Positions 40,414-41,731 of a stretch of DNA of 64,000 nt are shown here, piece by piece. The notes under the pieces were generated by a model. The model ran no database searches and was not told where the DNA came from. It saw only the letters and a list, made by a program, of their open reading frames with translations. This DNA comes from Escherichia coli (lineage in GTDB: Bacteria > Pseudomonadota > Gammaproteobacteria > Enterobacterales > Enterobacteriaceae): NCBI RefSeq assembly GCF_030013595.1, contig NZ_CP122768.1; one strand, 5' to 3'. The translations under genes and the position numbers were made by a program. Positions within the stretch are counted from its first letter, which is position 1, and each line of letters begins with the position of its first letter.

Positions 40414-40608
40414 TTACAGCAACTGGTGAGGGCTGGCATAAGTTGCCGGTGTTTCGGTAGAGTCACGGTCATCCACCACGCGGAGTGAATAACCGTTTTC
40501 AGCGGCCTTATTAATCAGTTCAGTGATATTAACACCATCAATGTCAACGACAATGTGCCCCATATCCAGCGCCTGTACGTTAACGCTGTCGGCTTCCAGT
40601 GTCATCAT
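40414..40608 (-). CDS. yeeW: CP4-44-type protein YeeW
   Basis: 64-aa ORF immediately downstream of cbtA. Confidence 0.7.
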   Translation of the reverse strand: MMTLEADSVNVQALDMGHIVVDIDGVNITELINKAAENGYSLRVVDDRDSTETPATYASPHQLL

Positions 40609-40979
40609 TTCGCCTCCGGATACTTACCCAGGGTAATGTTATTTACCGTTCTGTAATTGTCGCGGGTCATCAGGCCGGTTGCCCGGCGTGCCCGGAGGAT
40701 ATCAATACTGTTTATTAACTGAGAGCGGGTACAGGCGCTGAATCCCGGCTGGTCGGTACGCACCAGCGCGTATTTTTCCACGAGAAAGTTCACCGCATCA
40801 CACAGTGAAATGCCTGCCTCAATATGCTGCTCAATCACACGTTCATCGGCAAAAGGTGTGTCATTCAGTGTGAGGCCATAGTGCTGGTCCAGCAGTCGGG
40901 ACAGCAGTATCTGCCAGATTTCAACAGGAGACGGGCGAGAACTGGCCGCCTGCCCGGGTAATACAGGTAATGTTTTCAT
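40605..40979 (-). CDS. cbtA: Cytoskeleton-binding toxin CbtA (YeeV)
   Basis: 124-aa ORF MKTLPVLPGQAASSRPSPVEIWQILLSRLLDQHYGLTLNDTPF. Confidence 0.9.
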   Translation of the reverse strand: MKTLPVLPGQAASSRPSPVEIWQILLSRLLDQHYGLTLNDTPFADERVIEQHIEAGISLCDAVNFLVEKYALVRTDQPGFSACTRSQLINSIDILRARRATGLMTRDNYRTVNNITLGKYPEAK

Positions 40980-41067
40980 ACTGAAGATTTTCCTGATATG
41001 CAGATATAAAAATGGAAAAGTGGCGTGGTGAAAACACCAGGCCGTAGCAGAAGGCTATTCTGGAGAG

Positions 41068-41436
41068 TTAATTTTTCATTTCGGGCGTCGGATAAACAGC
41101 CAGATAAACGTAACCACAACTGCTGAGGGTATCGGCTTTGCAGGTCAGCCCTTTTGCATACAGCGTGACGGTATGCTGATGGCGGGGATTCAGTTCACCG
41201 CTGGTGAGCATGAGTTCCAGTTGTTTCATCAGCAGCGGAAAGGCCTGGTCCAGGTGGTACGCATCTGCATCGCTGAACAGGCCTCTGATACCGGCGCGGT
41301 CGGCAAGGTAATGCAACCGGTTACCCTCCTGCACCAGACGTGCCCCGAAACAGGGCGTCACGGTGCAGGGCAGCCCCCACTAGGGGCGGTCGTGATTGTC
41401 GTCGGGAAGTGTTGTCCCGGGGAGTGTGTCTGACAC
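41068..41436 (-). pseudogene. cbeA: Antitoxin CbeA (YeeU) with an in-frame amber stop at codon 19
   Basis: Reverse complement reads GTG-SDTLPGTTLPDDNHDRP-TAG-WGLPCTVTPCFGARLVQEG...; the stop is TAG (plus-strand cta, 41380-41382) where the remembered CbeA has W. Confidence 0.7.
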
Positions 41437-41509
41437 GATAAAATCCTTACAGAAAATCGGCTAAGAATGGTCCGGTAGTGGCGATAATTCTGCTCATCAG
41501 AATTCCCAC

Positions 41510-41731
41510 TCAGTTCAGGGTGACGCTCATCAGCCGGACATACGGACCAAAACTGTCCTTACGGCGTTCAGCAAACACGGCCAGCACACCGGGAATATCC
41601 TGCACTTCACGACCGGTATACGCTTCAGCACTGCCGTGCCAGCGGTATTTACCGGTACAGAACGGAAAAAGACGGGATGTCGGATGTTGTTGGTGAATAC
41701 GCATGGCTTCACCACGGGTGATAATTTTCAT
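41510..41731 (-). CDS. yeeT: CP4-44-type protein YeeT (DUF987)
   Basis: 73-aa ORF MKIITRGEAMRIHQQHPTSRLFPFCTGKYRWHGSAEAYTGREV. Confidence 0.85.
   Translation of the reverse strand: MKIITRGEAMRIHQQHPTSRLFPFCTGKYRWHGSAEAYTGREVQDIPGVLAVFAERRKDSFGPYVRLMSVTLN

Follow-up and report, generated by a model that had tools for sequence, protein, structure and literature searches.

The cbeA-cbtA module and its interrupted antitoxin frame

The window analysed here, a stretch of 64,000 nt of Escherichia coli DNA, carries on its minus strand a module formed by the antitoxin gene cbeA (yeeU) and the toxin gene cbtA (yeeV). The cbeA frame occupies positions 41436..41068 (minus strand), from a GTG start at 41436 to a TAA at 41070-41068, and an AAGGA Shine-Dalgarno precedes the start; the native Shine-Dalgarno region, UGUAAGGAU (41443..41451, minus strand), lies 7 nt 5′ of the GTG with a predicted pairing energy of -5.9 kcal/mol with the anti-Shine-Dalgarno sequence. 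The antitoxin gene is placed directly upstream of the CbtA-family toxin gene cbtA (40979..40605, minus strand), from which it is separated by a spacer of 88 nt (40980..41067, minus strand) that is C-rich and G-poor (C/G up to 2.3). The toxin gene is intact and encodes a protein of 124 aa (WP_000854814.1), the same that is found where cbeA is full length. The module is flanked by yeeT (DUF987; 41510..41731, minus strand), the upstream gene of the same island, and by yeeW (DUF5983; 40414..40608, minus strand), which overlaps the end of cbtA. The P4-like island that harbors these genes is a CP4-44-type element adjoining yeeX/tmaR, yeeA, sbmC and dacD.

The genes, their order (yeeS-yeeT-cbeA-cbtA-yeeW), the 88-nt spacer and the neighbourhood are the same as in the type IV CbeA/CbtA (YeeU/YeeV) module of CP4-44 in K-12, whose cbeA-cbtA spacer was also reported to be 88 nt long (PMC5371832). 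In K-12, CbeA counteracts the toxin via FtsZ and MreB and not by binding to the toxin (Masuda 2012, in PMC5624674, PMC5371832). Unlike in the CP4-44 module of K-12, the antitoxin frame of the window is broken at codon 19.

In the minus-strand translation of cbeA, VSDTLPGTTLPDDNHDRP is followed by the stop and then by WGLPCTV, from where the frame continues to the usual C-terminus. The stop is a TAG at codon 19 (41382-41380, minus strand; hereafter W19amber), in which the A at 41381 is the mutated base; the ancestral alleles have TGG. The solved structure of YeeU (PDB 2H28) reads HDRPWWGL at this place, so that the stop takes the position of the first W of RPWWGL, as the original prediction had proposed. 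CbeA and CbtA are not represented by any NCBIfam model; when codon 19 is read as W, the translation matches Pfam PF06154 (CbeA_antitoxin) with E = 5.1e-53 over residues 18-117 (model positions 1-100/101) and is 98-100% identical to the YeeU structures 2H28 and 2INW. The WGL motif (residues 20-22), which is conserved across the PF06154 alignment, sits between the W19 stop and a GTG at codon 26, and owing to the TAG the window has no uninterrupted cbeA frame that includes this N-terminal WGL. The further claims of the prediction, namely that the downstream codons are in frame, that a single base is responsible for the nonsense codon and that cbtA is uninterrupted, were borne out as well: the full-length allele of strain 042 has the same sequence beyond the stop and differs from that of the window at nt 56 only (A in the window, G in 042), and 40979..40605 is an open ORF of 124 codons.

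Over 8 kb around cbeA, the window matches the chromosome of E. coli YF-1, a manure isolate from Shanghai, with 100% identity. This genome has a single cbeA/cbtA-like locus at blastn sensitivity, and tblastn found no second cbeA/cbtA copy in the 64,000-nt window. In contrast to K-12, which has three modules, the genome of the window is thus without a YfjZ/YpjF or YafW/YkfI paralogue as judged by blastn, and backup of the interrupted gene by a paralogous antitoxin in YF-1 was rejected at that sensitivity. Since YF-1 has only one such locus as judged by blastn, the strain of the window has an intact toxin without a full-length antitoxin of the family.

Population spread and origins of W19amber

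Carriers of W19amber were counted by megablast with a 35-mer centred on the TAG and an exact word of 28 bases, under which TGG alleles are unable to seed. Among the 5,426 complete E. coli genomes of the collection searched, the allele is present in 42 (0.8%, about 1%), with one copy each and always on the chromosome. The carriers come from humans, pigs, poultry, cattle, giant panda, river water, soil and a cave, and 13 of the 42 are identical to the window across the 832-nt cbeA-cbtA stretch. A sequencing or assembly error in one genome, for which nothing speaks beyond the general possibility of such errors, was rejected and has a vanishingly small probability, since the identical allele occurs in 42 independent complete assemblies that differ in laboratory, host and country; for the same reason it is not an assembly artefact. 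W19amber is a true nonsense allele in circulation among natural E. coli. Of the 29 W19amber loci that were read directly or found identical, 26 have an intact toxin gene; in the carriers KGu016, E2 and Z1323CEC0010 the gene is frameshifted.

Twenty carrier loci, read base by base or through their annotation, were used to define the genetic backgrounds of the allele. Background A is the haplotype of the window, and background A′ corresponds to A plus C29F with a different yeeS/yeeT. Backgrounds B and B′ are characterized by eight or nine differences within cbeA from nt 161 on, background C is situated elsewhere in the genome, in another paralogous module whose spacer measures 46 nt and whose toxin is a different member of the CbtA family, and background D is a haplotype with a 1-nt deletion in cbtA. 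The comparison with the cbeA alleles of other strains, proposed along with the original prediction, revealed full-length counterparts with TGG on backgrounds A, B and C. Besides the pair formed by the window and strain 042 on background A, nt 56 is the sole difference between H22 and D8 over 832 nt on background B, and between FHI_NMBU_11 and 2012EL-2448 over 802 nt on background C.

Background C is further marked by private SNPs at nt 29 and nt 120, which flank the TAG. The allele of C is independent, because the TAG could have come from A only through a conversion tract of less than 91 nt. A single clonal origin of W19amber was therefore rejected on the basis of these flanking private SNPs together with the one-base TGG counterpart. 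Backgrounds B and D have their 5′ sequence in common with A and could be recombinants. As judged from the haplotypes, the strict minimum is two origins, C being the only background that strictly proves independence, and four or more origins are likely.

The paralogous module of FHI_NMBU_11 and 2012EL-2448 is followed by a DUF5983 gene (yeeW-like, 162 aa) and a DUF957 gene, both full length. In the island of the window yeeW encodes 64 aa, and DUF957 is annotated as a fragment in the examined carriers with the same layout. Given the shorter yeeW and the DUF957 fragment, the island of the window appears to be a more decayed copy than the paralogous module.

Nonsense alleles at the Dcm sites of cbeA

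In the full-length alleles the codons CGC CCC TGG TGG contain a Dcm site, CCTGG (CCWGG), at nt 53-57, and the corresponding positions of the window read CCTAG (41380..41384, minus strand). Dcm methylates the inner C on both strands, and deamination of the resulting 5-methylcytosine gives thymine (PMC12606429, PMC2715241), a change that is counteracted only in part by VSP repair through Vsr (PMC2715241). The G at nt 56 lies opposite the methylated inner C of the other strand, and W19amber is a G to A change at precisely this position. Deamination of 5-methylcytosine at the Dcm site would be expected to generate the same stop on independent backgrounds, and recurrence was found in the single-base TGG/TAG pairs of three backgrounds (A, B and C) as well as in a second amber allele described below. 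Neither this recurrence nor the Dcm context figured in the original prediction.

The other alleles expected or not expected from a Dcm hotspot were searched by the same 35-mer approach. The second Dcm site of cbeA, CCAGG (nt 189; 41244..41248, minus strand), is intact in the window; its deamination would convert the Q64 codon from CAG to TAG, and it is the only other Dcm site of the gene that is able to give a stop. The Q64 amber (window equivalent 41245-41247) was detected in 22 genomes, where it occupies no fewer than two widely divergent paralogue backgrounds. PGAP marks it as an 'internal stop' pseudogene, and in both carriers that were read it adjoins intact toxin genes. The W19 to TGA change, which would affect the unmethylated outer position, was found with the 35-mer in 0 of the 5,426 genomes.

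A third amber allele, W20 TGG to TAG (window equivalent 41377-41379), lies outside the Dcm context and is carried by 25 complete genomes. The four W20 amber loci that were sampled all have one identical haplotype with the same 1-nt cbtA deletion, so that both partners are dead. On the basis of these four loci, the W20 amber seems to go back to a single decay event in a module that was already dead, and to have been spread by descent. Its candidacy as counter-evidence to the hotspot was dropped, the sampled loci representing one haplotype with a dead toxin gene.

Recurrent amber mutations of this type are well described in lacI, where the classic amber hotspots arise by 5-methylcytosine deamination (Coulondre et al. 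1978, reviewed in PMC12606429). The lacI hotspots (Coulondre, Miller, Farabaugh and Gilbert 1978) and the Dcm-site ambers of cbeA have in common the recurrent G:C to A:T change at the methylated cytosine of CC(A/T)GG that leads to UAG. The Q64 allele of cbeA is of the exact lacI type (CCAGG, CAG to TAG), whereas W19amber is the opposite-strand version (CCTGG, TGG to TAG). In addition, the cbeA alleles come from natural populations and not from laboratory mutants, their dependence on dcm is inferred, and the synonymous partner change at the W19 site is unexpectedly rare.

This partner change is P18 CCC to CCT, a neutral substitution at the same Dcm site that arises from the other strand. A symmetric neutral hotspot predicts for it a frequency no lower than that of the amber, but it was found in only 1 genome versus 42 for W19amber. 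The prediction thus failed, and a pure symmetric neutral hotspot is not fully supported. The number of independent events is small, with at least 2 to 4 for the amber and 1 for the synonymous change, and the asymmetry between P18 and W19 may come from chance, from strand bias or from selection for the amber. With regard to strand bias, cbeA is presumably head-on to replication, as on the K-12 map, with the antisense strand as the lagging-strand template. The lagging-strand template deaminates more.

Consequences of the stop for CbeA and CbtA

The reading that we consider probable is that W19amber is a tolerated nonsense mutation in the cbeA gene of a cryptic prophage, generated by deamination at a Dcm site, through which CbeA is lost or strongly reduced. 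Deamination of 5-methylcytosine would have converted CCTGG into CCTAG, and the resulting amber would most likely lead to the loss or a strong reduction of CbeA. Cells would tolerate this loss, as CbtA, natively expressed at a low level, would not visibly harm them. The early stop would moreover bring about Rho-dependent polarity and probably lower the expression of cbtA. The RNA from the stop to cbtA is C-rich and G-poor, with a C/G ratio of 1.4-1.6 in the body of cbeA and the highest values in the spacer, and such untranslated RNA makes Rho-dependent polarity on cbtA plausible.

The tolerance is consistent with what was reported for K-12, where growth is normal in the Keio single-deletion strains and also in a triple mutant lacking cbeA, yafW and yfjZ (PMC5371832). 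In that work the toxin and antitoxin mRNAs were low compared with relBE, the operon was autoregulated by neither protein, and the authors ascribed the deletability of the antitoxins to low toxin expression (PMC5371832). The Q64 amber, a certain null that stands beside intact toxin genes, is a natural parallel to this tolerated loss. W19amber is probably harmless, since cells are known to survive without this antitoxin. Loss of the antitoxin, one of the options of the original prediction, is thus its best-supported part; the paradox of an intact toxin without its antitoxin, which the prediction implied, does not stand, as antitoxin deletions grow normally (PMC5371832).

Full-length CbeA could still be made through a suppressor tRNA or natural readthrough, as the prediction had also suggested by pointing to supE and supF alleles. 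Position 19 is variable in relatives (W, Q, E, V or P); W19 is thus not conserved, and insertion of Gln or Tyr would probably be tolerated. A glnV gene with a CUA anticodon (supE) matched 154 records of the collection at 100%, so that supE-type alleles do exist in it, but those among the matches listed are laboratory K-12 derivatives (15 of 15). In YF-1 the glnV cluster was located by stepping from rnpB and gal, and the anticodons were determined by ARAGORN: glnV and glnX have CTG and glnU and glnW have TTG, all of them wild type. A tyrT with CUA (supF) was not found at 100% in any of the 5,426 genomes, of which 5,425 matched at exactly one mismatch as a control; the suppressor loci covered were glnU, glnV, glnW, glnX and tyrT. 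The window itself contains no tRNA genes. In addition, a suppressor in each of 42 diverse wild isolates is implausible. A U follows UAG19, and U after a stop is reportedly the strongest termination context. We therefore rejected supF for the whole collection and supE for YF-1, and suppression in the carriers is very unlikely.

Among the matches listed for the supE tRNA, 'none' is annotated beneath it in 15 records, in which PGAP leaves the gene unannotated.

A working antitoxin might instead still be made in a shortened form, either by reinitiation at the GTG of codon 26 (41359..41361, minus strand), the likeliest reinitiation codon, which would give a 97-aa product beginning with MTPCFGARL with the entire beta-sheet/helix core preserved, or from the CTG of codon 22 (41371..41373, minus strand), at which RefSeq/PGAP places the start of a 101-aa product. 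This possibility, which the original prediction had listed as an N-truncated protein, we regard as unlikely. Nearly all of the Pfam domain (residues 18-117) lies after the stop, and the AlphaFold model gives residues 1-18 low confidence and has its first strand from residue 29 on. YfjZ and YafW (105 aa), members of the same Pfam family with a shorter N-terminus than CbeA, have no 14-residue N-terminal extension, their residue 5 aligning to residue 19 of CbeA, and they still neutralise CbtA. GTG26 follows the stop at a distance of 18 nt and a GGGGG run (41374..41378, minus strand) at 12 nt; this run lies between the UAG and GTG26 and resembles a Shine-Dalgarno, with -8.4 kcal/mol compared with -5.9 kcal/mol for the native one. 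After termination, bacterial ribosomes are able to scan for more than 40 nt and to resume translation at the first start codon with a Shine-Dalgarno-like sequence ahead of it (PMC5972666). The toxin is also intact in most carriers, and YF-1 is without a paralogue at blastn sensitivity.

Both putative products, however, would lack W20-G21-L22, which is kept by every intact family member in the alignment; YfjZ and YafW differ from any W19amber restart product in having the WGL (YfjZ residues 6-8). Residues 21-30 are modelled confidently by AlphaFold (block mean pLDDT 94), and in the model this segment probably packs on the domain. The distance of 12 nt between the G-run and GTG26 is long for a Shine-Dalgarno, and both elements are predicted to be base-paired, the GGGGG run pairing with GCCCCU (41387-41382) in a 6-bp hairpin with the AG of the stop in its loop. 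The CTG22 start has no usable Shine-Dalgarno, with -2.7 kcal/mol and zero spacing to the G-run. The locus resembles the restarts of lacI and T4 rIIB (the scanning model of Adhin and van Duin) in having an early stop and, within 40 nt, an in-frame GUG behind a Shine-Dalgarno-like sequence, and it differs from them in the long spacing and the predicted structure of the candidate site. Two short representatives of the family that begin with MTP (P0156, P0229) have garbled C-termini and appear to be broken alleles, and they were rejected as support for a functional truncation. Finally, the Q64 amber, from which no functional product can arise, reaches about half the frequency of W19amber, and this indicates that the persistence of ambers does not require function. 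A restart product may nevertheless provide residual antitoxin activity.

Further downstream within cbeA (41314-41330), an AGGAGG (41330-41325; -10.8 kcal/mol), close to a perfect ribosome-binding site, lies 8 nt 5′ of an in-frame TTG at codon 41 (41316). The putative product of this TTG41 would have 82 aa and would be without the first beta-strand. The AGGAGG/TTG41 arrangement is present in the window, and nt 97-119 are identical to those of the window in all sampled alleles.

The excess of ambers over synonymous changes at the codon 19 Dcm site (42 genomes to 1), together with the recurrence of the amber on several backgrounds, could also mean that the amber is favoured by selection, with an advantage from the loss or shortening of CbeA or from a lowering of cbtA expression by polarity, possibly as a reversible switch. 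An increase of early biofilm formation of 2- to 4-fold in antitoxin deletions (PMC5371832) also speaks in its favour. This explanation we hold to be improbable: with so few independent events on either side the asymmetry is not statistically decisive, clonal descent inflates the numbers of genomes, the frequency of the allele is low (0.8%) with no sign of a sweep, and it is not known to have a phenotype.

In its more specific form, W19amber would be a recurrent and possibly reversible Dcm/Vsr switch, whose off state would consist of the 97-aa restart antitoxin or of less cbtA expression and in which Vsr would restore TGG. On the opposite strand the mutant site is CTAGG, the context of the CTAGG-to-CCAGG mutation that Vsr can stimulate (PMC2715241). 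Selection for the off state, if the switch were real, would explain the scarcity of the synonymous change relative to the amber; we see the switch as a long shot. The tolerated loss or strong reduction of CbeA after Dcm-site deamination stands as our preferred reading of the allele.

What is already known comprises the CbeA/CbtA module, the Dcm amber hotspot type and the tolerated loss of the antitoxin, and in this light W19amber is a real but ordinary, tolerated nonsense allele in a decaying module of a cryptic prophage. Natural populations harbor at least three cbeA nonsense alleles (W19 in 42, W20 in 25 and Q64 in 22 genomes). An intact toxin beside a broken antitoxin is no paradox in the CbeA/CbtA family, and the intact toxin of most W19 carriers fits with the deletability of the antitoxin in the laboratory and with a CbtA that is harmless at native expression. 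The recurrence at the Dcm sites of cbeA is a natural-population case of a textbook hotspot, and the excess of amber over synonymous changes at such a site could merit a genome-wide look. Our literature search found no paper that describes cbeA nonsense alleles, and the text of a 2023 mBio survey of E. coli toxin-antitoxin (TA) systems contains neither 'pseudogene' nor 'truncat'.

In RefSeq/PGAP, 42 of 42 W19amber alleles are annotated as a 101-aa 'YeeU family antitoxin' that starts from the CTG three codons past the stop, with no pseudogene flag. The accession WP_044863316.1 is common to W19 and W20 amber alleles, and W19amber appears under several WP accessions. The W20 ambers are likewise without a pseudogene flag, and TA surveys based on annotation will count the W19 and W20 ambers as intact antitoxins.

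With regard to the genome of the window, dcm was not found in YF-1 within 50 kb beyond the window, where a conjugative element is inserted. This large element lies at approximately 1.899-1.939 Mb of the YF-1 chromosome, past the end of the window and beyond ldtA, and displaces the region that holds dcm in K-12; it carries a VirB-type type IV secretion system and also encodes MobC, an ArdC family protein, an 'ABC-three component system' with an SMC family ATPase, and UbiD/UbiX decarboxylases. Elsewhere on the YF-1 chromosome, the threonine/serine transporter gene tdcC (615983-617314) is listed as an internal-stop pseudogene, so that cbeA is not the sole nonsense-interrupted gene of this strain.
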